In this document: piece after piece, positions 11,265 to 24,713 of the stretch
How the letters are laid out: the number at the start of each line of letters is the position of its first letter
Numbering within the stretch: the first letter of the stretch is position 1
Assembly (NCBI GenBank): GCA_037446815.1
Contig: JBBIHX010000011.1
Location: forward strand, 1 to 39,826
DNA length: 39,826 nt
Source: Caldilineae bacterium
GTDB lineage: Bacteria; Chloroflexota; Anaerolineae; DTLA01
Direction: 5' to 3'
Program-made: the position numbers and the translations under genes
Notes under the pieces: model-generated
Databases searched by the model: none
Told to the model about the DNA's origin: nothing
Seen by the model: only the letters and a program-made list of their open reading frames with translations

Positions 11265-11410
11265 GTGTACCTCCCTGCACAATGTTTGTCTTCAGCGACA
11301 TCATAGCGCAGCGTTATGAAGGGAGGTTGAGCAAGTTGTGTGGAAGTGATGAAGGTTCAGGCGCGACGGCGGCGCACCAGACAGGCGCGTGCGGCAATTG
11401 GCAACAGCGG

Positions 11411-12613
11411 CTACAATGGGGCGGCGCCCAGAACCTGCACCACGTCGGGCGTCGCCCACACCGCCGCGCCGGTCGTGTCCACCACCAGGTCGCACAACGC
11501 CATCTGAGGCCGGTAGCACTTCTCCGCCATCAGAAACTGCTCTCTGAAGAAACGGTTGCGGAAGTACGAGGGGTCGTACTTCTTGCGATAGTCAATATCC
11601 CGCTTCCACTTCCGTTTCAGGCGGATGGGGTCATCGGTCAAGTACACCACCTTGATGCCGATGAGGTGCGCAACCTCCTCAATGAGAAACGGGAAGTTGC
11701 CCTCAATGAAGATGACATCCGCCGGGTCAATCTCTATGGGGCGACAGCCCGGCTTCAGATTCCCGTCCAAATCGTGGCTGGACGTGGCGAACACAAAGTC
11801 GTAGCGAGGAATCACGATGCGTCTGCCGCGGGTGATGTCCTCCAGACTGCGGCACAGGAGTTGCAGGTGTATGGCCTGCTTGCCCAGCGTGTAAATCCCC
11901 TTGGCCTCGCGATACTCTCGGTCCGTGAGGAAGTTATCCATCTCAATCGCCGTCGTCTGGCGCCCCTCGTTGTGCAGGAAGTCCCGCAGCCGCGCCACGA
12001 TTTCCGTCTTGCCCGCCGCGGTAGGCCCGGCGATGGCCAGCACAATCGGCGTGCCTTTGGCCTCTATCAGCCGGCGGACGCTGTCCATGAAGAACGCATC
12101 CACCTCGGCGTTGGCCTCGCGAAACTCCTTGTAGCCCAGGTCTTGTCGCCGCTCAAAAGCCTCCTGGCGGCGGGGGAACTGGCGGATGGGCGCGCCGCCC
12201 AACCTCGCCACGATTTGCTCCGTGAAGTACGTGGTGCGATGAAGGAAGAAGAACCCGCGGATGTCAAAGTAGAAGTGCGCGCGCACCCACGAAACGGGAT
12301 ACTCGCCCGTTACCAGCCCGACAAACAGCATCTGCGTCAGGCGCACGATGTTCTCATCCAGGACAATGCGCTCATCCACGCGGGGCTTGATCTGGATGGA
12401 TTCGTAGAATTCGGCGGTGCTGACCCGAGCCTCAATCGCTTCCATCGGCTCCGGCGTTACCGACGCCCAGCCGCCTTCCGGGTAGAGATTGTCCAGCGCG
12501 TAGCGAAACTCGTACAGTTCCATGTCCTCCACGCCCGGGTTGACATGGGCCATGGCGCGATAGAGGTACTCGGAGAACACCGAGGAATCGTGCAGTACGG
12601 TCAGAGCCGCCAT
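11411..12613 (-). CDS. Phosphoribulokinase/uridine-kinase-family P-loop kinase with an unassigned N-terminal domain of about 190 aa
   Basis: LAIAGPTAAGKT (Walker A), IEMDNF, PRYDF, IFIEG, RLKRKWKRD; RBS AGGAGG before ATG 12613. Confidence 0.8.
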   Translation of the reverse strand: MAALTVLHDSSVFSEYLYRAMAHVNPGVEDMELYEFRYALDNLYPEGGWASVTPEPMEAIEARVSTAEFYESIQIKPRVDERIVLDENIVRLTQMLFVGLVTGEYPVSWVRAHFYFDIRGFFFLHRTTYFTEQIVARLGGAPIRQFPRRQEAFERRQDLGYKEFREANAEVDAFFMDSVRRLIEAKGTPIVLAIAGPTAAGKTEIVARLRDFLHNEGRQTTAIEMDNFLTDREYREAKGIYTLGKQAIHLQLLCRSLEDITRGRRIVIPRYDFVFATSSHDLDGNLKPGCRPIEIDPADVIFIEGNFPFLIEEVAHLIGIKVVYLTDDPIRLKRKWKRDIDYRKKYDPSYFRNRFFREQFLMAEKCYRPQMALCDLVVDTTGAAVWATPDVVQVLGAAPL

Positions 12614-12649
12614 CCCAATCCTCCTGTGGCGCAACCGGCACCGCGGAAT

Positions 12650-14236
12650 TCACGGCCGCGCCGGGTGCTTCCTCCCGACGCCGAAGACGAGCGCATCGTA
12701 GGCTTTCCGGGTCTTGGCGTAGTTGCCATCGCGATCCAGGGCAATCCCCCGCCCGACGCCGGTAACCACGGTGCCGATGCCGATTTCCCGAACCTGATCC
12801 TCCAGGCGTTCCAGCAGCGCAGGCGCGCTCCCCGGCTCCGTGCTCCGCCCGTCAAAGATGATGTGCACAAACACCCGTTCCAGCCCCGCGCCCTTCGCCA
12901 TGCGGAGCAATGCAAGTGGATACTCTATGGAGCCATGGGAACTCTTTTCCGTGAGCAGCCCCAGCAGGTGGAGACTCGCCCCGCGCTCCTTCACCCGCCG
13001 AATCGTGCGGCACAGGATTTCGTTGTGGTAGAACGAGCCATCCTTCATCGCCAGGTCAAGCCGCACGTCATCCTGCAGAATCACCCGCCCGGCTCCGATG
13101 TTGATATGGCCCGCCTCGGAGTTGCCGGGCTTGCCCGGTTTCAGCCCCACCGCCTCGCCCGCCGCCTCCAGGGTGCAGTGCGGGTACCGCCGCAGAAGCC
13201 CATCCCACACCGGCGTGCGCGCCAGGAAGATGGGGTTTGAGCCATCTTCCCTGCCGATTCCCCAACCGTCCAGAATCAGCAGAAGCGCGCGGCGGCGACC
13301 AGCCCAGCGGGCTTCGGGCAATAGGGCGCTGCCCGTCATGGCGTCGGGCACGGGCAAGCCGAGAGCACCCAAAACGGTAGGGGCCACGTCCGCCAGGCTC
13401 CCGTCCCGCGCGGTTGCACCGGACTCGCCGCGCGCGTCTATCGCGATGAACGGCACCGGGTTCGCCGTATGCGCCACGTGCGGCGTCCCGTCCGGGTGCG
13501 TCATCTCCTCCAGATTGCCGTGGTCTGCCGTAACGAAGACCACATACCCCGCGTCGCAAGCCGCGCTCACAACCTCGCCCAGGCAGCGATCCACCGCCTC
13601 CGCGCAGGCAATCTTGGCCTCGCGGCTCTGCGTATGGCCGATGACATCGCCATTGGCGAAGTTCGCCACGATGAGGTCATAGCCCTCGCCGATGCCCTGC
13701 GCTACCCGCGCCGCCACCTGCGGCAGGGCCAATTCCGGCACCTGGTCAAAGGGAACGCCCTTGGGCGATGGAATACGCGCATCCTCTTCGCCCGCGAAGG
13801 GCTGACCGTTCCCGCCGTTGAAGAAGAACGTTACATGCGCGAACTTCTCCGACTCTGCCACGCGCAATTGGCGCAGCCCTGCGCGGCTCACGACTTCGCC
13901 GAGGGTGTGGTCCACGTGCGTGGGCGCGAAGGCCACCGGCAGGTCCTTGAACTTCTCATGGTACAAGGTCAGGATGACGAACACCAGGTCCTTGAACGGC
14001 CGGCGCGGGAAAGCGTCCAGCGACGGATCCACGAATGCCTCGGTCAACTGAACCTCTCGCTCCCCCCGCCGACAGCAGAACACCACCGCGTCGCCATCCT
14101 GGATGCGGCCAATGGCCTCGCCTCGCTCGTCGGTCAACACGATAGGCTCAAGCGAGTAATCCGTCTGCCCCTCGCGATACAATTCTCGGACGGCCTGCGC
14201 CAAGGCCGCCGCGCCATGCACGGTAGCAGGTCCCAT
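12650..14236 (-). CDS. Circularly permuted 2,3-bisphosphoglycerate-independent phosphoglycerate mutase (GpmI/iPGM)-family protein
   Basis: Canonical C-terminal part (AESEKFAHVTFFFNGG, NFANGDVIGH, TADHGN, AHT, LADVAPT, MTG) precedes the canonical N-terminal part (LLILDGWG, GNSEAGHINIGAGR, FDGRS, DRD). Confidence 0.92.
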   Translation of the reverse strand: MGPATVHGAAALAQAVRELYREGQTDYSLEPIVLTDERGEAIGRIQDGDAVVFCCRRGEREVQLTEAFVDPSLDAFPRRPFKDLVFVILTLYHEKFKDLPVAFAPTHVDHTLGEVVSRAGLRQLRVAESEKFAHVTFFFNGGNGQPFAGEEDARIPSPKGVPFDQVPELALPQVAARVAQGIGEGYDLIVANFANGDVIGHTQSREAKIACAEAVDRCLGEVVSAACDAGYVVFVTADHGNLEEMTHPDGTPHVAHTANPVPFIAIDARGESGATARDGSLADVAPTVLGALGLPVPDAMTGSALLPEARWAGRRRALLLILDGWGIGREDGSNPIFLARTPVWDGLLRRYPHCTLEAAGEAVGLKPGKPGNSEAGHINIGAGRVILQDDVRLDLAMKDGSFYHNEILCRTIRRVKERGASLHLLGLLTEKSSHGSIEYPLALLRMAKGAGLERVFVHIIFDGRSTEPGSAPALLERLEDQVREIGIGTVVTGVGRGIALDRDGNYAKTRKAYDALVFGVGRKHPARP

Positions 14237-14266
14237 CACACCCCTCGCCCCTGCCCTTCCGCACCG

Positions 14267-15697
14267 TTACGCCGCCTGGGAGGGCAGGCGCGGCGGGAAG
14301 ATGTCCAGCAAATCGCTGAGCCGACGGATGATGTAATCGGGCCGGTTCTCCTCGGCGATGGGTTCCTGCTCCTCTGCCGGGTCAATGAGCAGGATGACCA
14401 TCCCAAACCCAGCCTTGCGCGCGCCTTCCACATCGCGGGCCGGATTATCGCCCACGTAGGCGGCCCGCGATGGAGCGACTTCCGCCCGGCGCGCCCCTTC
14501 CAGGTAAATCTCCGGGTCGGGCTTGCGCCTGCCGAAAATAGATGAGAGGACCACGGTCGGGAAGTAGGGCTTCAGCCCATCCTCCTCCAGCCACTGCGGA
14601 ATCTCGCGCTCGGTAATCGTGTTGCTGATGATTCCCAGCCGATAACCGCGGCGCGTCAATTCCAGCACCACATCCTTTGCGTCGGGCTGGGCGAAGCGGC
14701 GGCCCATCGTCTGGCGGTACAGGAACGTCAGTTCTCCGGCCAGCGGGGCGATCTTCTCCGGGGGATAGTCGGGCAGGAGCCAGCGCGTCCACAACTCCCG
14801 CTCCGAGGCCTCCCGCAAGGTCTCAAATGCCCACTTGCGGTACACCTTGTACCGTTTGTCCAGTTCGGCGCAAAACGCCTCGGGAGGTTCCTGCGCGCCG
14901 ACCAGCGCCGCGATCTTCCGTCTGGCCTCGGCCTGATACGGCTCGTCCTCCACGAGCACCCGCAGCGTCGCCCCAACGTCAATGAAGATGACCTCAATGT
15001 CGCGGCCCATGTCCCTTGCCTCCCTATGGGGTATTGACGTGAAAATCGGCAGGTCCAGCAGTTCCAGAGGAGACGCGGCATAGTAGTCGGCCCTGGCGTC
15101 TTCGGCGTAGTTCACGGCCACCGTAACCATCCCCGCGTTGTGCGCCCCATCCAGTTCGTCGGCGTCGTGCCCCACGAATGCCGACTCGGCCGGCGTCAAC
15201 CCCGCCATCTCCAGCGCACGCAGGTAGATGGCAGGGTCGGGCTTGTGCGCGCCCACGTCGGTAGAGCACGCCAGCACATCCACAAACGGAGACAGCCCCA
15301 GGCTATCCAGCCAGCGGCGCTTCCGCTCAATCGGGTAAATCGTATCGGTAACGATGCCTACCACGAACCCCCGCTGCTTCAGGGCCGCCAGCGCCTGCCT
15401 CGCTCCGGGAATCTCCTCCACACGGTCCGAGTGGGCGTTGATTTCCGACACGAGCGCGCGGCGGACCTGCGGGTCGGCGACGCCGTACAGCGCCAGCACC
15501 GCGTCCCAGTACTCATCCGGCGTAATGACGCCGTTGTTGGCGTCTGCCCGCAGCGCCCTGATTCGCGCCCGCTGCGGCTCGCCCAACTCCCCTGAAATCC
15601 CCTCGCGCCGCAGCAACTTCAGGACGAAGCGGCTCGTCGCCTGTGGCCGCCGGTACAGGACGCCAGCCGCATCAAAGAAAACCCCCCTAATCCCCAT
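14267..15697 (-). CDS. Tandem double HAD-superfamily (IA-like) hydrolase
   Basis: Domain 1: FFDAAGVL..KPDP..FVGH. Domain 2: FIDVGATL..ISN..KPDP..YVGDN...DV. Internal RBS plus ATG at 15010. Confidence 0.85.
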   Translation of the reverse strand: MGIRGVFFDAAGVLYRRPQATSRFVLKLLRREGISGELGEPQRARIRALRADANNGVITPDEYWDAVLALYGVADPQVRRALVSEINAHSDRVEEIPGARQALAALKQRGFVVGIVTDTIYPIERKRRWLDSLGLSPFVDVLACSTDVGAHKPDPAIYLRALEMAGLTPAESAFVGHDADELDGAHNAGMVTVAVNYAEDARADYYAASPLELLDLPIFTSIPHREARDMGRDIEVIFIDVGATLRVLVEDEPYQAEARRKIAALVGAQEPPEAFCAELDKRYKVYRKWAFETLREASERELWTRWLLPDYPPEKIAPLAGELTFLYRQTMGRRFAQPDAKDVVLELTRRGYRLGIISNTITEREIPQWLEEDGLKPYFPTVVLSSIFGRRKPDPEIYLEGARRAEVAPSRAAYVGDNPARDVEGARKAGFGMVILLIDPAEEQEPIAEENRPDYIIRRLSDLLDIFPPRLPSQAA

Positions 15698-16460
15698 GGT
15701 TGATCTCCGAAGATGAGATGAGCAAAGGAATGATTTCTGACAGGCTCCCGATGACCGCATCCGGCGCCTCGCCACCGGCGGCGCGGTCCACCTTCTCCGT
15801 GAGGAACGACCGAATCTGAATCGCCAGCCCGTACCCCGCGCGGCGCGCGCCGATGACATCGCGGGAGACCGTATCGCCCACGTAGGCGCACTCGGCGGGC
15901 GACAGATTCAGCCGCCGCGCCGCCTCATGGAAGATGCGCGGGTTCGGCTTGCGCCAGCCGAATTCGGCGCTGGTCAGCACAGGGCCAAACAGGTGCGCAA
16001 TCCCATAGGCTGCCAGTTGGCGCGGCACCAGCGTGCGGCTGATGATGTTGGAGATGACGCCCAGGCGAAGACCGTGATCGCGGAGCGTCTGCAACACATC
16101 ATGGGCGTCGGGCCGCAGCTTGCGAATCTGATAATGCGTCTCGTAGAAAAACGTCAGGTCCTCGGCGGCGGCGGCAAGCCGATCCTTGGGCAGTCCGTTG
16201 TTCGGGAAGACGTACTCCGCCCAGACGCGCGCCGGCGGCAGTTCCCGTTCCGTCGCCTCGCGCCACGCCTGGTATGCCTCCATCCCCCCCAGCACGGTTG
16301 CCTCCAGCGCTGCCGCGTCCAGGCCCGGGTCCAGGCCGATCTCGCCCAGCACGCACTGAAGTTGGACCGTGGCCGCCCGGCGACTGGCGTCGTCAAAGTA
16401 CAGGTCTTCCAGCGTGCCGCCCATGTCAAACACGACGGCGCGAATGTTCGGGTATGGCAT
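15687..16460 (-). CDS. HAD-superfamily (IA-like) hydrolase
   Basis: VFDMGGTL, ISN, KPNP, YVGDT..RD; RBS AGGGAG before ATG 16460. Confidence 0.88.
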   Translation of the reverse strand: MPYPNIRAVVFDMGGTLEDLYFDDASRRAATVQLQCVLGEIGLDPGLDAAALEATVLGGMEAYQAWREATERELPPARVWAEYVFPNNGLPKDRLAAAAEDLTFFYETHYQIRKLRPDAHDVLQTLRDHGLRLGVISNIISRTLVPRQLAAYGIAHLFGPVLTSAEFGWRKPNPRIFHEAARRLNLSPAECAYVGDTVSRDVIGARRAGYGLAIQIRSFLTEKVDRAAGGEAPDAVIGSLSEIIPLLISSSEINHGD

Positions 16461-16541
16461 GTCGGTCTCCCTACAGCCGGCGCTTGGTAGCACGGAAGCA
16501 ACAGCGTGCTGCGTTCGGGACGCGAACTCACCCGCCAGGAA

Positions 16542-16577
16542 GACGCCGGAGGCCGCGGGAGCGTGGCCCCCGGCGTC
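16542..16577 (-). terminator. Strong stem-loop after the solute-binding protein gene (terminator or mRNA stabiliser)
   Basis: GACGCCGGGGGCCACG-CTCC-CGCGGCCTCCGGCGTC on the minus strand: 16-bp stem with one G-U and one mismatch; only a weak U tail. Confidence 0.55.
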
Positions 16578-16605
16578 GTTCCGTTCTGCCCACCGGGCTT
16601 GCGTA

Positions 16606-17868
16606 CTACTGCAACAGGTTCATCGCCCAGAAGTCGCGCATCTTGGCAATGTTGGCATACACGTACATGTCGTCTTGCGACCAGACGCTCAGTTCCTCGC
16701 GGGGGATAGCGCCTTCGGGCGCGGGCACATCCGTGCGCGCCGCGTAGTCGCCGATGACGTTCCACGGCTCAAACCCTTCGTTCAGGATGAAGCGGATAAA
16801 GAGTTTGGCTGCATTCGGATGAGGCGCGCGGTTGATGATCGCCAGGTACGCCTGCGTCTGCACGCCCATGACCGGCTTCACGCCCTTGCAAGCGTCAAAG
16901 ACCACCTCGCCCTTGAGCGTGCGGCGGTACTTGGAGTACGACGTGAAGCCCACGCCCGCCTCCTTCATGCCGGGGGTCGCGAAGGCTTCCACAACCTCGT
17001 CGCCGCCCGGCTCCGGCACGGGCGAGTTCTGGGCGAACCGCTTGACCCACAGCCAGCCCGCGTCGGGCGTGTCGGGATCCAGCACCGGGTCTTTTCCGTA
17101 GTATTCCCGGTACGCCGCGGCCAGTTCCTCCGCGTGGGCTGCGATGGTCGTGAGAATGCCCATGGTGGAAGCGTCGGTCAGCGGATCCTCAATGAAGACC
17201 TTGCCCTTCCACTCCGGCTCGGTCAACTGCCACCAGTTGGTGATGGGGCAGCCGTTGGGGTTGAGTTCGGTGTTATAGCCCAGGACACGCACACCATAGC
17301 GCGAGACCACAAACGGGTTGCGGGCCTCGGGCGGGATCACGTCCAGCAGGTCATCGGGCACAAAGGGCACCAGGTAGCCCTTGGGCAGGAACTCGCCGAA
17401 CACGTCGGGGCCGCCGCCGGAGAAGTACACGTCGCCGATGTAGGCGCCGGCCTTCTGCTCCTCGCGCACCTTGATGACCGCGTCATCGCCGCCCAGGTCG
17501 TACCCTTCCACGGTGATCTCGGGGTACTTCTCCATGAACATGGCGGCGGCGTTCTCAATGCGCGACGAGTTGGCGTAGACGATGACCTTGCCTTCCTTCT
17601 TCGCCGCGGCCTCAATCGCCGCCCAGTCTTGCTTGGCGGGGGCGAACTTGCCCAGTTCCGCCGCCTTCAGCCACTGCTCATCCGGCGTCAGCGTCGGTTC
17701 GGGCGTTGGGGCGGGCGGCTGCGTCGGAGCCACAGTCGGCTGCGCGGGCGCAGTCGTGGGCGCAGTCGTGGGCGCGGGCTTGGGCGTTGGCGTCGCGGCC
17801 GGCGCGCCGCACCCCGCGATGAGCACTACCAACAGACATACCGAAAGAACCTTCACCAGCGTCTTCAT
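16606..17868 (-). CDS. ABC transporter solute-binding lipoprotein (AfuA/FbpA/PotD-like class)
   Basis: Lipobox LIAG-C; PT-rich linker with 12-bp tandem repeats (PTTA); AAAKKEGKVIVY, GYNTEL, W..L..PEWKGK, APHPNAAKLFI. Confidence 0.9.
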   Translation of the reverse strand: MKTLVKVLSVCLLVVLIAGCGAPAATPTPKPAPTTAPTTAPAQPTVAPTQPPAPTPEPTLTPDEQWLKAAELGKFAPAKQDWAAIEAAAKKEGKVIVYANSSRIENAAAMFMEKYPEITVEGYDLGGDDAVIKVREEQKAGAYIGDVYFSGGGPDVFGEFLPKGYLVPFVPDDLLDVIPPEARNPFVVSRYGVRVLGYNTELNPNGCPITNWWQLTEPEWKGKVFIEDPLTDASTMGILTTIAAHAEELAAAYREYYGKDPVLDPDTPDAGWLWVKRFAQNSPVPEPGGDEVVEAFATPGMKEAGVGFTSYSKYRRTLKGEVVFDACKGVKPVMGVQTQAYLAIINRAPHPNAAKLFIRFILNEGFEPWNVIGDYAARTDVPAPEGAIPREELSVWSQDDMYVYANIAKMRDFWAMNLLQ

Positions 17869-17996
17869 TTCTCCCTCCTAGCGTGTCTTTCCGGAAAGGA
17901 AACCGTTAGGTCAAACTTGTTGCTCCTCCCCGTTCTCGCCTCCTTTCTACTGACTGACGGCGCGTCATCGGCCAGGCGCGCCCATGCGGATCACGC

Positions 17997-19088
17997 TCAT
18001 GCCTTCCGGATCGCCACAAGATTGCCTGTGGCGGCGTCGTACAGATTGATGGTGTTGGGGTCAAACTTTAGCCACACGGGATCGTCCATTTTGATGGGGC
18101 TGATGCCGGGCACGCGGACGGTAATGTCGCGTTCGCCGAGCCGCGCAACGATGGTGGAATCCGCTCCCGACGGCAGCACCGAGTAGACCGTGAACTTCAC
18201 TGTGTCCGGCGTCGGCTCCGTGTACACCCCGATATCCTCGGGGCGTATGGCCAGCACGACCTTGCCCTCCACGCCCTGCGTCACCATCGGCACCTTGAAT
18301 TCGCCCAGGTTCACGCAACCCTGGCCGTCCACGACCCCCTCCAGCAGGTTCACCTTCGGGTTGCCGATGAAGTCGGCCACGAACAGGTTGGCCGGGCAGC
18401 GGTACACACGGTCGGGCGGATCCACCTGCTGCAACACCCCGTCCTTCATCACCGCAATCAGCGACGACATGGTGAGCGCCTCCACCTGGTCGTGGGTAAC
18501 GTAGATGGTCGTCGCGCCGGCCACGTGGTGCAGCCGCTTCAGTTCGGCCCGCATGTCCATGCGCAGGCGCGCGTCCAGGTTGGAGAGCGGCTCGTCCATG
18601 AGGAAGACCTTGGGCCGATACGCCAGCATCCGCGCCAACGCAATCCGCTGCTGCTGGCCGCCGCTCATCTCCCGTGGGTACCGATTCTCGTACCCCAGCA
18701 TCTTCACCTCGGCCAGCGACTCTTTCACCCGCTTGTCAATCTCGGCTTTCGGCAGTTTTCGGATCTCCAGCGCGAAACTCATGTTCTTGTACACGGTCAT
18801 ATGCGGCCAGAGCGCGTAATTCTGGAACACCAGCCCCACGTCCCGCTGGCCCGCGGGCAGCGAAATCCCGCGCGCCCGCGAGTAGACCAGTTTGTCGCCA
18901 ATGTAGATTTCGCCCTCATCGGGGTCTTCCAGCCCCGCCACGCAGCGCAGGAGCGTCGTCTTCCCGCAGCCCGATGGGCCTAGCAGCGTGAGGAACGCCC
19001 CCGCTTCTATGGTCAGGCTCACGTTGTTGACGGCCACCACGTCGCCAAACCGCTTTGTGAGGTTCTTAATCGTAATGGTTGTGCCCAT
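17997..19088 (-). CDS. ABC transporter ATP-binding protein with C-terminal TOBE domain
   Basis: GPSGCGKT, VFQNYALWPH, MSGGQQQR, LMDEPLSNLD, YVTHDQ. Confidence 0.95.
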   Translation of the reverse strand: MGTTITIKNLTKRFGDVVAVNNVSLTIEAGAFLTLLGPSGCGKTTLLRCVAGLEDPDEGEIYIGDKLVYSRARGISLPAGQRDVGLVFQNYALWPHMTVYKNMSFALEIRKLPKAEIDKRVKESLAEVKMLGYENRYPREMSGGQQQRIALARMLAYRPKVFLMDEPLSNLDARLRMDMRAELKRLHHVAGATTIYVTHDQVEALTMSSLIAVMKDGVLQQVDPPDRVYRCPANLFVADFIGNPKVNLLEGVVDGQGCVNLGEFKVPMVTQGVEGKVVLAIRPEDIGVYTEPTPDTVKFTVYSVLPSGADSTIVARLGERDITVRVPGISPIKMDDPVWLKFDPNTINLYDAATGNLVAIRKA

Positions 19089-19097
19089 GCTCCCCCC

Positions 19098-20933
19098 TTA
19101 CATTCCTAGACCTTTTTTCAGGCTACCGCCTCGGAATCGCCCGATCACGAAGTTCCCGACGAGAACCAGCGCGATCAGGATGAGGATCACCGCGTTCGCC
19201 ATCTGGGTATCGCCGTTCTCGGTGTAGCGCATGGTCTGGCTGGCCAGCACCTGCGTTGAAGGCGTAACCAGCAAGATGATGAGGGACAATTCGCGCATCG
19301 TCGTGATGAACGTCAGCAGAAAGCCGGACACGAACCCGGCGCTCGTCAGCGGGAAGATGATGCGCTTGAACCGCTGCCACAGACCGGCCCCCGCGATCTG
19401 CCCCGCTTCCTCCAGTTCTCTCCCCACCTGGAGCATCGCCGATACGCCGCTCCGCGCCGAGTACGGGATGTGCTTCGCCACAGACACAACCACGAGCAGC
19501 GCGAATGTCCCGTAGAGCGCCGGAATCGGCCCCACGCGCTTGGAGAACATGGAGATGTACACCGCGCCGAAGGCGATGCCGGGTATCACGTAGGGGATGA
19601 ACGAAAGTTGCTCCACCAGTTTGGACAGGCGCGTGCCCCTCCCCTTCACGATGGCATAGCCCAGGATAACCCCGAGCAGCGCCGTGAAGAAGGCCGTGAG
19701 CAGCGACAGCCGAATGGAGTTCCAGGCGCTGGCGTAAATCTTCGGGTTACGCAGCACGCCAGGGGCACCGTTCGCAATGTTGATATCACTCTTGCCAATC
19801 CAGTAGTGCAATGTGAGGTTGCTGAGGCTGTAATCGCCCGCCCGCAGCATGAACGTGTCATAGGCAAGCAGGCCCAGCGGGAGTGCGATCACCAGAACCT
19901 GGAAGATGATCACGAAGACCGCGATGACATTGCGCCACCGGCGCAACTGAGCCACATGTGCCACAAACCCGCGGCCCCCGATGGTCTCGTAACTCTTGCG
20001 CGTGCCGATGACGCGCTGGTTGATGTAAATCGTTACGATGGTGAATAGAATGAGCACGATGGCCAGCACGAACCCATCCGCGAACTCCCCGATGGCCACG
20101 TTGGAGCGAATCATCGTGGCGATGACGTAGTACCGCACGGGCACGCCCAGCACGTTGGGCCCGCCAAACGTCCCCATGACTTTGGAGAACGTCATGATGA
20201 ACCCCGATAGCAGGGCCGGCAGCACCAATGGGAACGTGATGCGCCGAAGGATTCGGCTTCGGCCCGCCCCCATCAGTTCCGCTGCCTCCTCCAGGTTGGA
20301 GTCAATGGACATCAGCGCGGCCGAAACGAACAGGAAGAAGAAGGTGTAGTAGTGCAGCGCGCTGCTCACGATGATGGGAAACGGACCATAGGCCAGCCAC
20401 GTGGGAATCGGACGCCCAATCAGGTACTCCAGGAGGCCGGGGGTGCCACCGGCCGCCCTCGTGTTGAACAGCACCTTCCACGCCATGGCGATGGTCCACG
20501 AAGGCATGATGTACGGTATCGTGGCGAGGTTGTTGATGAGTTTGCGCCCGGGCATGTCTGTTCGGATGACCAACCAGGCCAGCACGGAGCCGATGAACAT
20601 CGCCAGGAGCGTGGCCCCGGTAGCCACCACCAGCGAATGCTGAAGCGGCGCGTACAGGAAAACCTTGCTCACCCGGCTCGCCAGCATCCGCACCCAGTGA
20701 TACGCCGTGAGTTGGCCGGGGACTGCATCGGGCACCGCATGGACATCGCGCTCCTGGTACGTTACCGTCGTCTCCACCATGCGGTACAGCGGCACCAGGA
20801 TGAGGTACACCATCATCACCAGCAGGATGAGCGCCAGGAGCACCCGCGCGCTGGTCAGCCAGCGGATGAACCGTCGGTACGCTGCCAGAATGCGCACCGA
20901 CAAGGGCAGTTCAATCGCCTCAGGAACGCTCAT
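19098..20933 (-). CDS. Fused double-domain ABC permease (AfuB/FbpB-like)
   Basis: Two EAA loops (LEEAAELMGA, LEEAGQIAGA); RTDMPGR; about 12 or more hydrophobic segments. Confidence 0.92.
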   Translation of the reverse strand: MSVPEAIELPLSVRILAAYRRFIRWLTSARVLLALILLVMMVYLILVPLYRMVETTVTYQERDVHAVPDAVPGQLTAYHWVRMLASRVSKVFLYAPLQHSLVVATGATLLAMFIGSVLAWLVIRTDMPGRKLINNLATIPYIMPSWTIAMAWKVLFNTRAAGGTPGLLEYLIGRPIPTWLAYGPFPIIVSSALHYYTFFFLFVSAALMSIDSNLEEAAELMGAGRSRILRRITFPLVLPALLSGFIMTFSKVMGTFGGPNVLGVPVRYYVIATMIRSNVAIGEFADGFVLAIVLILFTIVTIYINQRVIGTRKSYETIGGRGFVAHVAQLRRWRNVIAVFVIIFQVLVIALPLGLLAYDTFMLRAGDYSLSNLTLHYWIGKSDINIANGAPGVLRNPKIYASAWNSIRLSLLTAFFTALLGVILGYAIVKGRGTRLSKLVEQLSFIPYVIPGIAFGAVYISMFSKRVGPIPALYGTFALLVVVSVAKHIPYSARSGVSAMLQVGRELEEAGQIAGAGLWQRFKRIIFPLTSAGFVSGFLLTFITTMRELSLIILLVTPSTQVLASQTMRYTENGDTQMANAVILILIALVLVGNFVIGRFRGGSLKKGLGM

Positions 20934-21002
20934 ATCCCCTCCCTCGCAATGTCAGCACCCGAACGCGGCTTCAGCGCGCCCCTGCGCCAATGGATGCCGG
21001 CC

Positions 21003-21911
21003 TCACGGAACGCCGCGCTCTTCTCGTTCGCTCCAGGTGAGTTTGACGGGCATATCCATGTTGTACGTCTCGCGCATCCGCTCCAGCCGATTGAGGGCCG
21101 CGAGACTCTCCTCGGGCCGAGCCATGGCCACGGACAGAATCAGGGCATTCAGGATGGACATCGGCACGGTGAGCGAGTGGAATGTGGACACCGGCCCCCT
21201 GCGCGCGGCCAGCACCACATCCGCCTTGTGGCGAAGCGCGGGGCCAAGTGTGTCGGTGAGGAGCACGGAGCCGCACCCCACGGCCCGCGCATGCTCCAGC
21301 ACCACCACCAGTTCATGCCGCACGTACTGAAACCCCGCCGCCAGCACTGCATCGCCCTGCTGGAGCAGTTGCAACTTCTCCAGCAGGTGGCGCCCCGACT
21401 CGGTCATCGCCAACGCCCAGATGCCCAATCGCCTGAACCGCAGTTCGGCCAAATCCGCCAAGACGGCCGACGGCCCGCTGGCGAAGATGAAGAGCCGCTG
21501 GCCGCCCAGCAGGATTTGCACGGCGCGGTCAAAATCGGCCCCGTCTATGCTGTGAGCGGCCTCTTGGAGGTACTGCACCTCCATCTCCAGAACCTTGGTG
21601 AGGGTAGACCCCTCGCCATCCGACAACTCGTGGAGTTTGCGCTGAAGGCGACTGGCGGGTGTGGTGCGCTGGCGGAAGAGTTCCTGAAGATAGCGGCGGA
21701 GTTCCGGAAACCCGCTGAACCCCACCGCCCGGGCAAACCGACCCAGCGTCGCCTCGCTGACATCCAACCGCTCCACCAGGTCAGCAGCCGTGAGGAATGC
21801 CGCCTCGTCGTAGTTCGCCAGAAGATAGTCGGCGATGCGGCGCTGACTCTTGGTCAGGCTCGGGAAGTGGGCTTCCAGCCGTTGCCGAAAATCGTTGAGT
21901 CCTTGCTCCAT
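21003..21911 (-). CDS. RpiR/MurR-family transcriptional regulator (HTH plus SIS)
   Basis: LTKSQRRIADY, VSEATLGRFARAVGFSGFPEL, C-terminal SIS domain. Confidence 0.92.
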   Translation of the reverse strand: MEQGLNDFRQRLEAHFPSLTKSQRRIADYLLANYDEAAFLTAADLVERLDVSEATLGRFARAVGFSGFPELRRYLQELFRQRTTPASRLQRKLHELSDGEGSTLTKVLEMEVQYLQEAAHSIDGADFDRAVQILLGGQRLFIFASGPSAVLADLAELRFRRLGIWALAMTESGRHLLEKLQLLQQGDAVLAAGFQYVRHELVVVLEHARAVGCGSVLLTDTLGPALRHKADVVLAARRGPVSTFHSLTVPMSILNALILSVAMARPEESLAALNRLERMRETYNMDMPVKLTWSEREERGVP

Positions 21912-21964
21912 CCGCCACCTCGCGTCGGCGGGACCTGCACACGTTATCAGGCCCACCGTGAAAG

Positions 21965-21993
21965 ATTATACATCAAAATCTGTGAAAATGCAA
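21965..21993 (-). promoter_or_regulatory. Sigma70 promoter of the leftward RpiR-ABC-HAD-iPGM-kinase operon
   Basis: Minus strand TTGCAT-17 bp-TATAAT in an AT-rich intergenic region. Confidence 0.8.
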
Positions 21994-22051
21994 GAGGAAT
22001 TTCATTTCGCGCGAAACTTTAAACTTAGGCCGCCGAGTGTTGTAACCCGAC

Positions 22052-22080
22052 TGGCAAAACGCCGCAAAATGTAGTATAGT
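22052..22080 (+). promoter_or_regulatory. Putative sigma70 promoter of the rightward RpiR-oxidoreductase unit
   Basis: TGGCAA-17 bp-TATAGT. Confidence 0.55.
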
Positions 22081-22128
22081 CTTCACGGACATCCGGCCAG
22101 GGTGGACTTTTCGGGTCGGGAGGAAACC

Positions 22129-23031
22129 ATGGGTGCCAATGAGTGCCCCGAATTCAGCGAACTGGTGCGCGCCCGCTTTGGTTCCCTCACCAAAAGCGAG
22201 CGCCGCATCGCCGACTACATCCTGCGCAACCAGGAGGAGGCGGCATTCCTTTCCGCCGCCGAGCTGGCCGAGCGCGTGGACATCAGCGAAGCGACGGTCG
22301 TCCGCTTCGCCTACAGCCTGGGGTTCTCGGGCTTCCCCGAACTGCGCGCCTGCCTGCAGGCCCTGTTCCGCCGCCGTGTCTCGCACGCCGCCCGCCTGCG
22401 CAAGAAACTCGCCGAAATCAGCCCCGAGTCCCACATCTTGGAGCAGGTCGTCGCCATGGAAGTGGAGTACCTCACCGACGCCCTGCGAACCGTCTCGCGC
22501 GACGCCTTTGACGAGGCCGTGCGCCTCATCTGCGGAGCGCGGCGCACCTTCGTCTACGCACTGAGCGGGTCGGCGACGTTGGCCGAACTGCTGCAGCATC
22601 GCCTGCGCCGATTCGGCCTGGACGTGGTGCTCCTCACCCAGTCGGGCCGCGAAATCTGCGAGCCGCTGCTGAGCCTCGGCAGCGACGACGTCCTCTTCGC
22701 CATGCTCTTCTTCAACATCTCGGACGTCATGGAGGCGACGCTGGCCTACGCCAAAGAGTGCGGCGCCAAGGTCATTCTGCTCACCGACACCTTGGGCCCC
22801 CTGGTCCGAGAGCACACGGATGTGCTGCTTGAGGCGCAGCGCGGCCCCGTCATGGCGTTTCATTCGCTCATCGTGCCGATGGCCATCATCCAAGCCCTCA
22901 TCATCGCCGTGGCCATGGCCAACGAAGAGAAATCCCTCGCCACGCTGGACCGGCTGGACGAGATTCGCCAGCGCCTCAACTTTGACACATCGGTGCGCGT
23001 CTGGCAGCCGACGAGGAAGAAACCCGGCTAG
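22129..23031 (+). CDS. RpiR/MurR-family transcriptional regulator (paralogue of the divergent one)
   Basis: LTKSERRIADY, ISEATVVRFAYSLGFSGFPEL; shares LLTDTLGP and RGPV..FHSL.VPM with its neighbour; RBS GGGAGG. Confidence 0.92.
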   Translation: MGANECPEFSELVRARFGSLTKSERRIADYILRNQEEAAFLSAAELAERVDISEATVVRFAYSLGFSGFPELRACLQALFRRRVSHAARLRKKLAEISPESHILEQVVAMEVEYLTDALRTVSRDAFDEAVRLICGARRTFVYALSGSATLAELLQHRLRRFGLDVVLLTQSGREICEPLLSLGSDDVLFAMLFFNISDVMEATLAYAKECGAKVILLTDTLGPLVREHTDVLLEAQRGPVMAFHSLIVPMAIIQALIIAVAMANEEKSLATLDRLDEIRQRLNFDTSVRVWQPTRKKPG

Positions 23032-23082
23032 GCCCCCAGGCCCGTTGCGCCGGCCATTACACACGACACGGAGGAACCCCGC

Positions 23083-24252
23083 ATGGAACGATTGCACGCC
23101 GCCATTGCAGGCATCGGATTTGTGGGCAGGGCTCACCTGGAGGCCCTTCGCCGCCTAGGCATTCCCGTCGCCGGGGTCTTGGGGAGCACGCCCGAGAAAG
23201 GCCGCCGATTTGCGGAGACCTTCGGCATCCCCCGCGCCTACGCGGACCTCGCGGAGATGCTCGCAGACCCCGCCGTGGACGTGGTGCACGTGTGCACGCC
23301 CAATCACCTGCACTTCGCCATGGCGTCCGCCGCCATGCGTGCGGGGAAGCACGTCGTCTGCGAGAAGCCCCTGGCGCTGACCGCGGGCGAGTCGCAGGAA
23401 CTGCTGCGCATTCAACAGCAGACGGGGCGCGCCTTCGCCGTCTGCTTCAACCAGCGCTACTACCCGCTGTGCCATGAGGCGCGGGCCCGGATTCTCGGCG
23501 GCCAGGTGGGCGCCATCCGCGTGGTGCACGGCGAGTTCCTCCAGGATTGGCTCTTTTCGCCCGCCGTCTGGAGTTGGCGACTGGACCCCGCCCAGGGGGG
23601 CACCCTGCGCACCGTGGGCGACATCGGCAGCCACTGGCTGGACCTGGTGGAGTGGATCACCGGCCTGCGAGTCGTGGAGGTGTGCGCTGACCTGGCCACG
23701 TTCATCCCGACGCGGCGCAGACCCGCGAGCGGCGCGGAGACATTCTCCGACGGCGTGGCCGCGCCCGACGCCGAGGAGGTCGCCGTCCAGGGCGAGGACT
23801 ACGCGGCCATCCTCTTGGCCTTTTCCAACGGCGCGCGAGGTTCCGTAACCCTATCCCAGGTGTGTCCCGGGCGCAAGAATCGTCTGCGGTGGGAAATCAG
23901 CGGGGACAAAGCCGCCCTGTGGTGGGACGCCGAAGACCCGAATCGCCTGTGCATCGGCCACGCCGACGCGCCCAACGAGACGCTCATCAAGTCGCCCGGG
24001 CTGATGATGCCCGATGCGCGCGCCTACGCCGCGTACCCCGCCGGGCACGCCGAAGGATACCCGGACACGTTCGTGCGGCTTTTCCAGGACGTGTACGAGC
24101 ACATCGCGAGCGGCGCTTCCCTGTCGTCCGCCCCGTTCCCCACGGTCGCCGACGGGCATCGGCAGATGGTCTTGTGCGAGGCCATCGGCGAGAGCGCCCG
24201 CCTGCGACGGTGGGTGAGGGTGGAGAGCGGCGCAGAGCCCGCGGCGGGCTGA
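23083..24252 (+). CDS. Gfo/Idh/MocA-family NAD(P)-dependent oxidoreductase
   Basis: GIGFVG, CTPNHLH, HVVCEKP, DIGSHWLD; sugar-dehydrogenase-type GHAEGY tail. Confidence 0.93.
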   Translation: MERLHAAIAGIGFVGRAHLEALRRLGIPVAGVLGSTPEKGRRFAETFGIPRAYADLAEMLADPAVDVVHVCTPNHLHFAMASAAMRAGKHVVCEKPLALTAGESQELLRIQQQTGRAFAVCFNQRYYPLCHEARARILGGQVGAIRVVHGEFLQDWLFSPAVWSWRLDPAQGGTLRTVGDIGSHWLDLVEWITGLRVVEVCADLATFIPTRRRPASGAETFSDGVAAPDAEEVAVQGEDYAAILLAFSNGARGSVTLSQVCPGRKNRLRWEISGDKAALWWDAEDPNRLCIGHADAPNETLIKSPGLMMPDARAYAAYPAGHAEGYPDTFVRLFQDVYEHIASGASLSSAPFPTVADGHRQMVLCEAIGESARLRRWVRVESGAEPAAG

Positions 24253-24292
24253 GAACCGCGGGCGCATCCCCCGGCAACCCACCGCCGCGCCA

Positions 24293-24538
24293 TCAGTCGG
24301 AGGGGGAAGAGAACTCCCGCGCGACCTCAATCACGCTCACGGGCAGTTTGGGGTTCCCGTTCAGCACGCACTGCGCCCAGATATACTCCTCTCCGTAAAT
24401 CACGAGATCGTCCGAAGTGAAGCAGAACTCCTCGGCGATGGCCGTCATTCGCTCCATGAACAGACGGCATTCGTCTTCTTCCAACGGCAACGCCATGAGT
24501 TGGGCTTTGAGGGTCGCCAGCAGTTCGTGGGGGATCAT
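24293..24538 (-). CDS. Small acidic hypothetical protein (81 aa)
   Basis: RBS GAGGGAG before ATG; host-like codon usage; directly follows the zinc-ribbon gene. Confidence 0.65.
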   Translation of the reverse strand: MIPHELLATLKAQLMALPLEEDECRLFMERMTAIAEEFCFTSDDLVIYGEEYIWAQCVLNGNPKLPVSVIEVAREFSSPSD

Positions 24539-24578
24539 CGCTCCCTCTCACAGCAAACTCTGTGGCGCTCGCGTGCCT

Positions 24579-24713
24579 CTACTTCCCCTCTTTCTTCACC
24601 ACCCGCACGCTGTTGCTGCGACACTTCGGGCACATTCGCTCCTTGTCGGGGTCATGCTCCTCCTCCCACTCGTGCCCGCACCGCATGCATTTGAACTTCA
24701 CCTTGTCAGCCAC
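24579..24713 (-). CDS. 44-aa zinc-ribbon protein (CxxC...CPxC)
   Basis: Not in the ORF track. GTG at 24713 with RBS GGAGGGG; MADKVKFKCMRCGHEWEEEHDPDKERMCPKCRSNSVRVVKKEGK. Confidence 0.8.
   Translation of the reverse strand: MADKVKFKCMRCGHEWEEEHDPDKERMCPKCRSNSVRVVKKEGK

Follow-up and report, generated by a model that had tools for sequence, protein, structure and literature searches.

Which process is served by a run of eight genes that encodes a regulator, an importer and a series of phosphoryl-transfer domains on the minus strand of a contig (JBBIHX010000011.1) from a Caldilineae bacterium? These genes and two divergent ones occupy positions 11411-24252 of the window, the whole stretch of 39,826 nt that was analyzed. 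An earlier note on this DNA had recognized no described pathway with this combination of genes, and our literature searches likewise found no published description of the system or pathway. The ten genes lie where that note had placed them, as the extents of the open reading frames and the Pfam and NCBIfam families agree. The minus-strand run reads RpiR, fused permease, ATPase, lipoprotein substrate-binding protein (SBP), HAD, double HAD, permuted iPGM and kinase; this operon combines a regulator of the repressor type (RpiR) and a binding-protein-dependent ABC importer (FbpA/AfuA/MctA class) with three phosphoryl-transfer domains of HAD fold, the P-loop kinase and the permuted iPGM.

A gene neighborhood conserved among Anaerolineae

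Related loci were retrieved by means of the kinase, yielding 79 loci, 46 of them at least 20 kb long, and the conservation counts are conditional on the presence of this gene. Among the 46 long loci, the permuted iPGM, the ATPase and the SBP are each present in 45, the permease in 42, RpiR in 40, and three to five HAD domains in 42. Neighborhood conservation, the check that had been named for the proposed system, is strongly positive, and co-occurrence in 45/46 long loci is far beyond chance; all related loci come from one class, Anaerolineae, and shared descent contributes to these figures. The genes flanking the system in the window (FabH, Fer4 and FlpD) occur in 0/46 long loci, and the window flanks are conserved in 0/79 loci overall. 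Gene arrangements vary among the relatives (8 window-like, 53 split-order and one opposite-strand), and HAD-A and HAD-B are fused in some genomes, HAD-B and HAD-C in the window genome. The linkage persists despite rearrangement, gene fusion or fission, and change in copy number, and the minus-strand run is one conserved unit, linked across dozens of Anaerolineae species. Median identities to relatives are 70% for the permease and 74% for the ATPase, and with the kinase and iPGM included they span 63-74%, as conserved as core genes.

In relatives, the set of genes is usually extended by a mutase of the ApgM type, another kinase and a phosphate-transporter pair (PhoU-like/Pit); in 23/79 loci the cluster also encloses an EntS-like MFS_3 gene. 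The window cluster contains no ApgM-type mutase, second kinase, MFS_3 transporter or Pit pair, and is a reduced, compact form of the system. The PhoU-like/Pit pair (PhoU_div and PHO4) lies downstream of the cluster in 15-16 of the 23 testable loci and is consistent with inorganic phosphate being freed from an organophosphate after import.

Regulation and uptake

The operon is headed by RpiR-1, an RpiR/MurR-family regulator (21003-21956, minus strand; Pfam HTH_6 1.1e-16, SIS 2.2e-07; likely start further in, at ATG 21911, from its Shine-Dalgarno site), whose NCBIfam matches all fall far under the equivalog cut-offs. Ahead of RpiR-1 and the operon lies a promoter-like site, TTGCAT-17 nt-TATAAT (21965-21993, minus strand), that a generic promoter scan of the window does not list because its -35 element matches at only 3/6 positions. 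Its identification as a promoter in the earlier note is borne out by related genomes, where the pattern recurs ahead of the same genes: TTGCA[AT]-N16-18-TA..AT has a single match in the window, exactly at this site, and is found in 45/54 RpiR-upstream and 32/40 enzyme-module-upstream regions of related loci, against a background of 97 matches in 1.35 Mb overall. An inverted repeat, TGAAA-N5-9-TTTCA, is present in 32/54 and 18/40 of these regions, respectively (83 matches in 1.35 Mb). In relatives, the two halves of the system, transporter and enzymes, carry one promoter/operator pattern.

The opposite arm had been counted as part of the system, and of its two genes only the regulator is retained here. 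RpiR-2, of the same RpiR/MurR family (22102-23031, plus strand; Pfam HTH_6 2.5e-20 and SIS; likely start at ATG 22129, from its Shine-Dalgarno site), is preceded by the sole site listed by the generic scan, CTGGCA-18 nt-TATAGT (22051-22080, plus strand). The -10 region of this site is similar to the one found in a related locus, L012, in front of the RpiR-2-like regulator at the head of the operon; RpiR-2 and the L012 regulator are 61% identical. The cluster-linked RpiR of relatives has a median identity of 46.9% to RpiR-2 versus 43.0% to RpiR-1, most relatives being closer to RpiR-2, and RpiR-2 is probably part of the system. The adjacent Gfo/Idh/MocA oxidoreductase (23083-24252, plus strand; Pfam), which best matches levoglucosan dehydrogenase in NCBIfam (184 bits, cut-off 650), has a homolog at or above 40% identity and 50% coverage in 0/79 loci, including 0/46 of the long ones, and was therefore dropped from the system; it is a neighbor in the window genome only and probably has no part in the system.

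The importer consists of a fused two-domain BPD_transp_1 ABC permease of 611 aa (19098-20933, minus strand; two BPD_transp_1 stretches in Pfam), an ABC ATPase with a C-terminal TOBE_2 domain (17997-19088, minus strand; Pfam ABC_tran 9e-35), and a lipoprotein SBP of the FbpA/AfuA/MctA structural class (16606-17868, minus strand; lipobox ...LIAGC). The best NCBIfam matches are PhnU2 for the permease (full length, 163 bits, cut-off 593) and a UgpC-like family for the ATPase (357 bits, under the cut-off of 432); the SBP matches Pfam SBP_bac_11/1/6 weakly and no NCBIfam family. The SBP, for which an AF2 model reaches a pLDDT of 90.6, has as its best PDB matches MctA of Thermus thermophilus (7F6E and mutants), a Mg2+-citrate binder going by the PDB entry titles only, followed by IbpS, HitA, VcA0625 (G6P), P5PA (pyridoxal phosphate) and AfuA; the matches after MctA thus include binders of G6P, PLP and Fe3+. 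MctA is the best match both by sequence (profile E 3.9e-15) and by fold (E about 1e-16, TM about 0.7), and in the alignment a Tyr-x-x-Ser-Ser loop in the N-lobe of the SBP falls on the segment of MctA that contains the residues changed in the S26A and D28A entries; identity to MctA is, however, only about 20%, and the SBP exceeds MctA by about 80 residues.

The transporter had been likened to AfuABC, the hexose/heptose-phosphate importer of Actinobacillus and Citrobacter, which together with VcA0625 and P5PA has the same combination of an FbpA-fold binder, a fused two-domain permease and an ATPase. AfuA and VcA0625 give target-normalized Foldseek TM values of 0.75-0.76 against the SBP model. 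The sequence match to AfuA is marginal (E 1.8e-3 with the single sequence, 1.2e-4 with a profile), and by sequence and fold alike it is MctA, not AfuA, that comes closest to the SBP among solved structures. AfuABC is not known to have HAD, mutase or kinase genes attached to it. AfuABC-type systems were likewise annotated as iron transporters, yet their ligands are phosphorylated organic compounds (PMC4546632, PMC8427247).

The HAD, mutase and kinase domains

HAD-A, a class IA HAD (15687-16493, minus strand; Pfam Hydrolase/HAD_2; likely start ATG 16460), is followed by the double HAD, a fusion of HAD-B and HAD-C (14267-15859, minus strand; two HAD stretches in Pfam), whose likely start, ATG 15697, overlaps the HAD-A stop by 11 nt; both starts have Shine-Dalgarno sites. 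The window HADs share with the class IA group of NANP, PH1655, PH0459 and HDHD3 the fold, the C1 cap, the nucleophile Asp, and the K-P and G-D-x-x-x-x-D motifs, and the nearest solved structures to HAD-A are HDHD3 (3K1Z) and PH0459 (1X42). Motif I reads D-M-G-G-T-L in HAD-A, where it is kept in 52/52 family members, D-A-A-G-V-L in HAD-B, and D-V-G-A-T-L in HAD-C. The Asp at position +2 is thus replaced, by Gly, Ala or Asn across the three subfamilies, whereas D-x-D is present in PH1655 and NANP, the nearest full-length PDB matches of the HAD-C profile. Retention of the nucleophile with loss of Asp+2 is seen in 52/52 HAD-A sequences, 47/50 HAD-B sequences, and all 147 listed of 148 HAD-C sequences. 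Because the Asp+2 general acid/base is missing in all three subfamilies, these HADs are, judged from motif I, not ordinary phosphomonoesterases, and their earlier description as small-molecule phosphatases is modified accordingly. Loss of Asp+2 in a HAD has a published precedent in LHPP, which has Ser at this position and hydrolyzes P-N and pyrophosphate bonds (PMC11277029).

The iPGM homolog (12650-14239, minus strand; likely start at ATG 14236, from its Shine-Dalgarno site) matches TIGR01307 in two stretches of swapped order, at 489 bits against an equivalog cut-off of 330.65. Residues 15-307 align to residues 218-509 of the B. stearothermophilus enzyme (1EJJ) and residues 316-523 to its residues 4-211, a clean circular permutation whose new ends fall within the transferase domain, around residues 211-218 of 1EJJ. 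Both domains are present, with all metal ligands, the Ser nucleophile, and the substrate-site Arg, Lys and His residues retained: the equivalents of D12, S62, D403, H407, D444, H445, H462 and of H123, R153, R261, R264 and K336 are invariant in 63/63 sequences, and those of R185 and R191 are found in 62/63. The pocket differs from that of the canonical enzyme in two motifs, with L-L-S-D-G-G-V-H-S-H changed to L-L-[TS]-E-K-S-S-H-G-S and D-G-R-D to D-G-R-S; the 63 sequences show both changes with little or no variation, while the five solved iPGM sequences compared all retain the canonical motifs. Because the permuted pocket contains an additional Lys and no Asp154, its substrate probably carries more negative charge than 3-phosphoglycerate.

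The last gene of the run encodes a kinase (11411-12634, minus strand; likely start at ATG 12613, from its Shine-Dalgarno site, giving 400 aa) with a PRK domain at residues 198-387. Its assignment to the PRK/UK family stands and its presumed likeness to glycerate kinase or PRK does not, the nearest relatives being uridine-cytidine kinases: UCK2 is the best PDB match by sequence (2.8e-12) and by fold, and the best matches comprise human UCK2/UCK1 and the Thermus uridine kinase. The P-loop and catalytic Asp, both invariant in the kinase family, the P-x-Y-D-F strand and the basic lid are common to the UCK/PRK/pantothenate kinase family (PF00485). The window kinase departs from PF00485 in scoring far under every equivalog cut-off and in carrying an additional N-terminal domain, highly conserved and about 190 residues long; the 95 matches to this domain among 1.84 billion representatives are all members of the kinase family or fragments of them, and as far as sequence searches reach the domain is confined to that family.

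The likeness to UCK2 suits nucleoside or nucleotide scavenging, an account that we consider unlikely, in which nucleotides or RNA breakdown products would be imported, the HADs would be nucleotidases, the kinase would re-make 5'-NMPs, and the mutases would act like phosphopentomutases on ribose phosphates sensed by RpiR. The equivalents of UCK2 Asp62, Tyr112, Phe114, His117, Arg169 and Arg174 are present and invariant in the kinase family, the HADs show sub-threshold matches to the pyrimidine nucleotidases YjjG and PynA, the iPGM weakly matches phosphopentomutase models, and the LacI regulator that adjoins the enzyme module of relatives has its best scores, though under the cut-offs, with PurR/RbsR/CytR. 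However, the equivalent of the ribose-binding Asp84 is missing in the window kinase, and the positions of Asp84, Phe83 and Tyr65, ribose and base contacts in UCK2, are not conserved in the kinase, which scores 60.6 with the udk model (cut-off 220.3). The mutase keeps the full phosphoglycerate-mutase arginine set and scores only 33 bits as a phosphopentomutase. Neither the window cluster nor the set of frequent neighbors in relatives includes a nucleoside phosphorylase or hydrolase, and the known HAD nucleotidases have Asp+2.

A candidate pathway and its alternatives

The explanation that we prefer, tentatively and with somewhat less than even confidence, is that the window holds the compact form of an Anaerolineae-specific regulon for the uptake of a small, strongly anionic organic phosphate, the phosphoryl groups of which are re-worked in the cytoplasm; every chemical step is deduced from family membership. 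The ligand of the lipoprotein would be polyanionic, possibly complexed with a metal as it is in MctA, and would be imported by the transporter, and the SIS domain of RpiR may sense the ligand or its phosphorylated product, leading to derepression of the operon. The HADs, with an Asp nucleophile and Mg2+ motif but without Asp+2, could remove phosphoryl groups that have good leaving groups or whose removal is helped by a neighboring anionic group, with release of Pi; this Pi would be handled by the Pit/PhoU pair next door in most relatives. The permuted iPGM would shift phosphate, via phospho-serine, between neighboring hydroxyls of a glycerate-like carboxylic acid, and the kinase would use ATP to re-phosphorylate a dephosphorylated intermediate or co-product. 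The end product is likely to be 2- or 3-phosphoglycerate or a close analog, feeding lower glycolysis, and our best guess for the substrate is a polyanionic, phosphoglycerate-like acid. The enzyme variants involved appear to be undescribed so far.

Some observations count against this explanation. A compound that arrives with its phosphate in place would make the kinase superfluous, and the enzymes point apart, with the iPGM pocket suggesting a glycerate-like acid and the kinase being nearest to nucleoside kinases. The permuted iPGM could be simply the housekeeping mutase of these organisms, because it passes the TIGR01307 equivalog cut-off and is publicly annotated as plain iPGM everywhere. 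Moreover, two "ordinary" mutases in one cluster are hard to explain, since the relatives' ApgM-type neighbor likewise scores above an iPGM equivalog cut-off.

Phosphorus acquisition, which we regard as improbable, would have an environmental organophosphate imported mainly to free its phosphate, with the carbon skeleton secondary or exported by MFS_3. This would accommodate the HAD domains, which number as many as six in a locus, the adjoining PhoU_div/Pit pair, the EntS-like MFS_3 within the cluster, and a permease and ATPase whose closest matches, both under cut-off, are putative importers of 2-aminoethylphosphonate and glycerol-3-phosphate. Yet the regulators are of the RpiR and LacI types associated with sugar metabolism, no Pho-type two-component system is visible, and Pit and MFS_3 are both missing from the window cluster; nor would mere phosphate release call for two mutases and for one or two kinases that consume ATP. 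Very unlikely is a coincidental neighborhood of an iron or metal-citrate importer, a housekeeping iPGM and kinase (for glycolysis and pyrimidine salvage) and generic HAD phosphatases, because, although MctA was deposited as an "iron ABC transporter" protein, the iPGM passes its equivalog cut-off, the kinase is publicly annotated as "uridine kinase" and four of the genes are conserved like core genes, the SBP is only distantly similar to MctA, in the 61 loci that could be scored the linkage outlasts fusions, duplications and two different gene orders while the window flanks are conserved in none of the 79, both halves have a promoter/operator pattern in common, and the iPGM, the kinase and the three HAD families each show family-specific, invariant departures from their housekeeping relatives.

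A conserved gene run and its shared upstream patterns

The genes that the earlier note had named at 11411-24252 all recur in the ORF list, and their families are confirmed by Pfam and NCBIfam. The system runs along the minus strand (11411-21956), beginning with the regulator RpiR-1 (21003-21956; likely start 21911), which is followed by a fused permease of 611 residues with two BPD_transp_1 domains, an ABC ATPase made of an ABC_tran domain and a TOBE_2 tail, a binding protein with a lipobox, a gene for a single HAD domain (HAD-A; likely start 16460), a double-HAD gene whose halves are HAD-B and HAD-C (likely start 15697), a homologue of the cofactor-independent mutase iPGM (likely start 14236), and a kinase (likely start 12613) in which the PRK/uridine-kinase domain is confined to residues 198-387. 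These starts, the kinase's included, and that of RpiR-2 below follow from ribosome-binding sites. Neighboring genes of this run are 10-129 nt apart, except for the two HAD genes, which overlap; within the long double-HAD ORF, codons 1-54 read through the HAD-A gene out of its frame and encode an Arg-rich stretch. On the plus strand, a divergent second regulator, RpiR-2 (22102-23031; likely start 22129), precedes a Gfo/Idh/MocA oxidoreductase. Both RpiR proteins combine an N-terminal HTH_6 with a C-terminal SIS domain (Pfam), and neither reaches an NCBIfam equivalog cut-off.

Searching the protein collection with the kinase gives 2455 relatives; the 120 best are 67-100% identical, all ~400 residues long, and annotated as "uridine kinase" or unnamed. 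With an alignment of 26 kinase relatives as query, 79 loci were obtained from bacterial and archaeal contigs that represent each species by one genome, most of these loci being titled Anaerolineae, Anaerolineales, Chloroflexota or "uncultured Chloroflexia". Four short contigs (L011, L020, L027 and L067) carry an Anaerolineae-type cluster in bins named Chitinophagales, Syntrophothermus, Bacteroidota and Aminicenantes, and these odd names may reflect binning errors rather than gene transfer. That the genes of the run belong together, as the earlier note had supposed, is what these relatives display: by tblastn of the window proteins, in a sample where every locus was found via the kinase and all come from one class, the kinase is present in 79/79 loci (46/46 of those of at least 20 kb), the iPGM homologue in 71/79 (45/46), the permease in 62/79 (42/46), the ATPase in 61/79 (45/46), the binding protein in 59/79 (45/46) and RpiR in 59/79 (40/46). 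Gfo/Idh/MocA, which the same note had counted as a member, occurs in 0/79 (0/46) and has been dropped; the window flanks FabH, Fer4 and FlpD likewise occur in 0/79 (0/46). Median identities to the window proteins are 63% for the kinase, 69% for iPGM, 70% for the permease, 74% for the ATPase and 47% for the binding protein. The arrangement itself varies. In eight loci the transporter lies upstream of the enzymes, as in the window; in 53 the enzyme module comes first and is followed by the RpiR-transporter-HAD module; one has the modules on opposite strands, and the order in the other 17 was not scorable. Of the long loci, 42/46 contain three to five HAD domains, HAD-A being fused to HAD-B in some genomes (e.g., L005) and HAD-B to HAD-C in the window. 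In 25/46 long loci the kinase has a paralogue beside it (e.g., L005:11209-12423), with ~55-62% identity and an N-terminal domain of the same kind.

A generic promoter scan of the window listed a single site, on the plus strand ahead of RpiR-2 (22051-22080). The minus-strand site at 21965-21993, which had been proposed as the promoter of the run, reads TTGCAT, 17 nt, TATAAT, and went unlisted because its -35 element matches at just 3/6 positions. Its pattern, TTGCA[AT]-N16-18-TA..AT, has its only occurrence in the whole window at this place, and recurs upstream of cluster-linked RpiR genes (45/54 regions) and of the enzyme module (32/40 regions) in related loci, out of a total of 97 plus-strand hits in 1.35 Mb, lending support to the proposed promoter. 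With RpiR-1 starting at 21911, the leader would be ~45 nt. Downstream of the conserved promoter, an inverted repeat, TGAAA-N5-9-TTTCA, is found in 32/54 RpiR-upstream regions, and it also stands ahead of the enzyme module in 18/40 regions (83 in total in 1.35 Mb). As promoter and repeat are common to both, the transporter and enzyme halves look co-regulated in relatives, with RpiR as the putative regulator. RpiR-2 is closer than RpiR-1 to the regulators that head the operons of relatives (median identity 46.9% vs 43.0%; 61% in L012) and is therefore kept in the system.

A perfect 12-bp palindrome, TTTC-GCGC-GAAA (22005-22016), in the AT-rich RpiR-1/RpiR-2 intergenic region was considered as operator and rejected, TTTC-N4-GAAA being unconserved in relatives; the operator idea was moved to the enriched TGAAA-N5-9-TTTCA repeat. 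A 14-bp perfect palindrome of the LacI-operator type, with the core CACACGTGTG, precedes the enzyme module in 29/40 regions and is present in 0/54 RpiR-upstream regions. It adjoins (e.g., L005:4700-4810, L038:5400-5510) a divergent LacI regulator, found in 36 loci, that is accompanied by the tagaturonate epimerase UxaE (31) and a LarA-like hexonate epimerase (17). These neighbours make a link to hexuronate/hexonate metabolism possible, one with no counterpart in the window. A search of Rfam returned only a chance-level sRNA inside the iPGM gene (E 0.29) for window positions 10000-25000 at E<=1, and zero matches in four related loci at the gathering threshold, so the ligand is not named by any known riboswitch.

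Binding protein, mutase, HAD domains and kinase

The reading we favor, giving it somewhat less than an even chance, is that the system takes up a polyanionic phospho-acid and re-works its phosphoryl groups. The sequence data show the anatomy of the system, its conservation, and the regulatory pattern shared by its halves together with the tie to a Pi transporter; the chemistry is inferred at every step. The best PDB sequence matches of the binding protein are the entries 7F6E-7F6U (E 2.5e-9 with the single sequence, 3.9e-15 with a 31-sequence profile), whose titles name MctA, a metal-citrate-binding protein found with Mg2+-citrate. The same entries lead the Foldseek matches of its confident AlphaFold (AF2) model (pLDDT 90.6), followed by IbpS, HitA, the G6P binder VcA0625 and MotA, and further on by P5PA, which binds pyridoxal phosphate, by AfuA in complex with G6P/F6P, and by the iron binders FutA/FbpA. 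Among the NCBIfam families the protein has no match. It had been described as AfuA-type, which holds for the fold class, since the FbpA-like (cluster D) fold is present with Foldseek probability 1.0 to AfuA 4R73, VcA0625 8X1A, FbpA and FutA, but not for the nearest relative, as AfuA matches far more weakly than MctA (E 1.8e-3 single sequence, 1.2e-4 profile). The transporter does resemble AfuABC in having a single fused two-domain permease and one ABC_tran/TOBE_2 ATPase. MctA, although nearest, is only ~20% identical, and its ligand is a tricarboxylate-metal complex; the literature search brought up no publication on it. We conclude only that the ligand is probably a small, strongly anionic molecule.

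The iPGM homologue is circularly permuted. Aligned to the B. stearothermophilus enzyme (1EJJ), its residues 316-523 correspond to 4-211 and its residues 15-307 to 218-509; it departs from the canonical linear domain order, with the old termini joined by ~8 residues and the new termini inside the transferase domain. TIGR01307 matches in two stretches with 489.3 bits, against a cut-off of 330.65. The equivalents of D12, S62, D403, H407, D444, H445 and H462 are invariant in 63/63 family sequences, as are those of H123, R153, R261, R264 and K336, and those of R185 and R191 are kept in 62/63. In 1EJJ, we take S62 to be the nucleophile, D12, D403, H407, D444, H445 and H462 to be metal (Mn) ligands, and H123, R153, R261, R264 and K336 to be substrate-site residues. 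Two canonical substrate-site motifs, kept in all five solved iPGM sequences displayed, are altered throughout the 63 permuted sequences: L-L-S-D-G-G-V-H-S-H has become L-L-[TS]-E-K-S-S-H-G-S, and D-G-R-D (Asp154) has become D-G-R-S. With a Lys gained and Asp154 lost, the pocket would be more positive, and we read the protein, from its sequence, as a likely mutase for a glycerate-like acid more negatively charged than 3PG; it may yet turn out to be a true PGM. The 120 homologues listed are 70-100% identical and ~528 residues long, and the named ones are annotated as ordinary iPGM. A role as C-P hydrolase, considered for the iPGM homologue and the HADs, was rejected, the whole mutase apparatus being kept and a PhnX-like model scoring 55 vs 219.

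The three HAD domains belong to three subfamilies, and their nearest structures are HDHD3, PH0459, PH1655 and NANP; no substrate of HDHD3 was found in our literature search. Among the hallmarks of class IA HAD phosphatases, the nucleophilic Asp of motif I (second residue) is shared by the three domains and by each of the family members listed, and motifs II-IV (Ser/Thr, Lys, and G-D-x-x-x-x-D for Mg2+) are present in alignments to HDHD3, PH0459 and PH1655. In the HAD-C alignment, N131, K164, G188 and D194 are invariant and D189 is nearly so. What the domains have largely lost is the Asp two positions after the nucleophile (Asp+2). HAD-A reads F-D-M-G-G-T-L in the window and D-x-G across its family, with Asp+2 in 0/52; HAD-B reads F-D-A-A-G-V-L and D-A-[GA], often with an Asp at +3, and has Asp+2 in 3/50; HAD-C reads I-D-V-G-A-T-L and D-x-[GN], with Asp+2 in 0 of the 147 members listed (148 in total). 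This loss is derived, because PH1655 has D-L-D at the aligned position. The one precedent known to us for a HAD that lacks this general acid/base is LHPP, which has a Ser at +2 and hydrolyzes phospholysine, phosphohistidine, pyrophosphate and imidodiphosphate (PMC11277029). By inference, the HADs of the system would handle phosphoryl groups that do not need a protonated leaving group, or would hold the aspartyl-phosphate longer than usual.

The P-loop domain of the kinase is nearest to human UCK2, both by sequence (2.8e-12) and by fold, and next to PRK and the pantothenate kinases; the AF2 model is of moderate quality (pLDDT 70), and Foldseek matched its kinase half only. The P-loop, G-P-T-A-A-G-K-T, and the catalytic D226 (equivalent to UCK2 Asp62) are invariant in the family. 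That the system scavenges nucleotides is a reading we consider unlikely. Equivalents of UCK2 Tyr112, Phe114, His117, Arg169 and Arg174 are present in the kinase; at UCK2 Tyr65, Phe83 and Asp84, the ribose/base contacts, the alignment shows a gap, a Leu and a Gly, and the scores stay far below the udk cut-offs (TIGR00235, 60.6 vs 220.3; NF004018, 64.9 vs 180). In Protein Atlas the kinase matched no clusters other than those of its own family and of generic uridine/deoxynucleoside kinases. The N-terminal 188 residues have neither a Pfam match nor a Foldseek match; at E<=1e-3 they find 95 proteins among 1.84 billion cluster representatives, the longest of at most 402 residues, so that these are only the kinase family itself and fragments. 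Class III glycerate 3-kinase was also considered and set aside, as the NCBIfam, PDB-sequence and fold matches include no model or structure of that group.

Additional genes in relatives and possible roles of the system

All ORFs of the loci were clustered and then searched with Pfam and NCBIfam. An ApgM-type mutase (PF10143; NF003160 with 571 bits vs a cut-off of 468) separates the permuted iPGM from the kinase in 46/62 loci with a complete permuted iPGM, and an EntS-like MFS_3 transporter occurs in 23 loci. Downstream of the HADs there is a pair consisting of PhoU_div (DUF47) and a PHO4/Pit inorganic-phosphate transporter (e.g., L060:13996-14964, L063:19090-19728), with PhoU_div in 15/23 and PHO4/Pit in 16/23 of the loci whose sequence continues for 4.5 kb or more past the gene for the binding protein. 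The window contains none of the ApgM-type mutase, MFS_3, LacI/UxaE/LarA-like and PhoU_div-Pit genes, and is therefore a compact version of the system. The neighboring phosphate transporter brings to mind that the purpose of the whole could be phosphorus acquisition, a reading to which we assign a low probability, the pair being present in relatives and absent from the window.

A more daring proposal, quite improbable at present, is that an environmental organophosphate would pass its phosphoryl groups through phospho-enzyme intermediates to ADP, with the kinases running toward ATP, thereby conserving energy at the substrate level. The imported compound would then carry crowded or labile phosphoryl groups, such as a pyrophosphate, a cyclic diphosphate, an acyl-phosphate or a P-N bond, or would be a polyphosphorylated acid or inositol, and the phospho-enzyme intermediates in these fermentative bacteria would be Asp-P in the HADs and Ser-P in the mutases. 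The loss of Asp+2 in three separate HAD families, the one or two dedicated kinases and the neighboring Pi transporter speak for this proposal; to our knowledge, substrate-level energy conservation from environmental organophosphate is undescribed. Linkage retained despite rearrangement, fusion and duplication argues for function, not inertia, and a coincidental neighborhood, under which iron uptake was handled and set aside, is very unlikely. What probability remains goes to something else.

Returning to the uptake and re-working of a phospho-acid, a regulator that comes with an ABC importer and with cytoplasmic enzymes devoted to a single substrate is a familiar kind of system. Going by the searched literature, the enzyme combination and each enzyme variant are undescribed: the search found no description of the cluster, of its enzyme combination or of any of its enzyme variants, no published account of a permuted iPGM and, when directed at inositol hexakisphosphate uptake and AfuA, no description of the cluster either, in agreement with the earlier note, which recognized no described pathway. 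In public annotations the system is hidden under generic names. Anaerolineae abound in sediments, soils, groundwater and anaerobic digesters, yet cultured members are few and most of what is said of their nutrient sources is deduced. With 8-14 genes conserved like core metabolism, the system points to a substrate important for the whole class, and its enzymes depart from textbook families in a permuted iPGM with a re-charged pocket, HADs without the general acid/base and a nucleoside-kinase fold with a private N-terminal domain. The identity of the ligand would give function to thousands of proteins called "iPGM", "uridine kinase", "HAD hydrolase" or "iron ABC transporter", could uncover a new route of organic-phosphorus turnover, and would set right those metabolic reconstructions in which the permuted iPGM is taken for the glycolytic enzyme.

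Flanking genes

The window of 39,826 bases has ~65% G+C. Runs of N at 703-712 (10 bases) and 2549-2648 (100 bases) are scaffold gaps, so the left end is non-contiguous sequence. A type II fatty-acid synthesis cluster follows on the plus strand (3632-9641), comprising a biotin-carrier-like protein, an NMO/FabK-like enoyl reductase, FabD, FabG, FabF and FabH; the FabH start is probably later, because the FabF and FabH ORFs overlap by ~118 nt. A Fer4_5/4Fe-4S polyferredoxin-like gene (10410-11282, minus strand) lies 129 nt downstream of the kinase and, being missing from 79/79 related loci, is probably outside the system. On the far side, the minus strand carries a redox run (24918-34184) with a FlpD/MvhD-domain Fe-S protein, a small FAD-binding ORF, a UbiA prenyltransferase overlapping a radical-SAM gene, an HdrD-like CCG protein and a 1071-aa multi-domain pyridine-nucleotide-disulphide/Fe-S oxidoreductase, which together look like heterodisulfide-reductase-like electron-transfer machinery. 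The same strand then holds, within 34181-39708, the three subunits of a 2-oxoacid:ferredoxin oxidoreductase and, after them, succinyl-CoA synthetase alpha, a HIT protein and succinyl-CoA synthetase beta.
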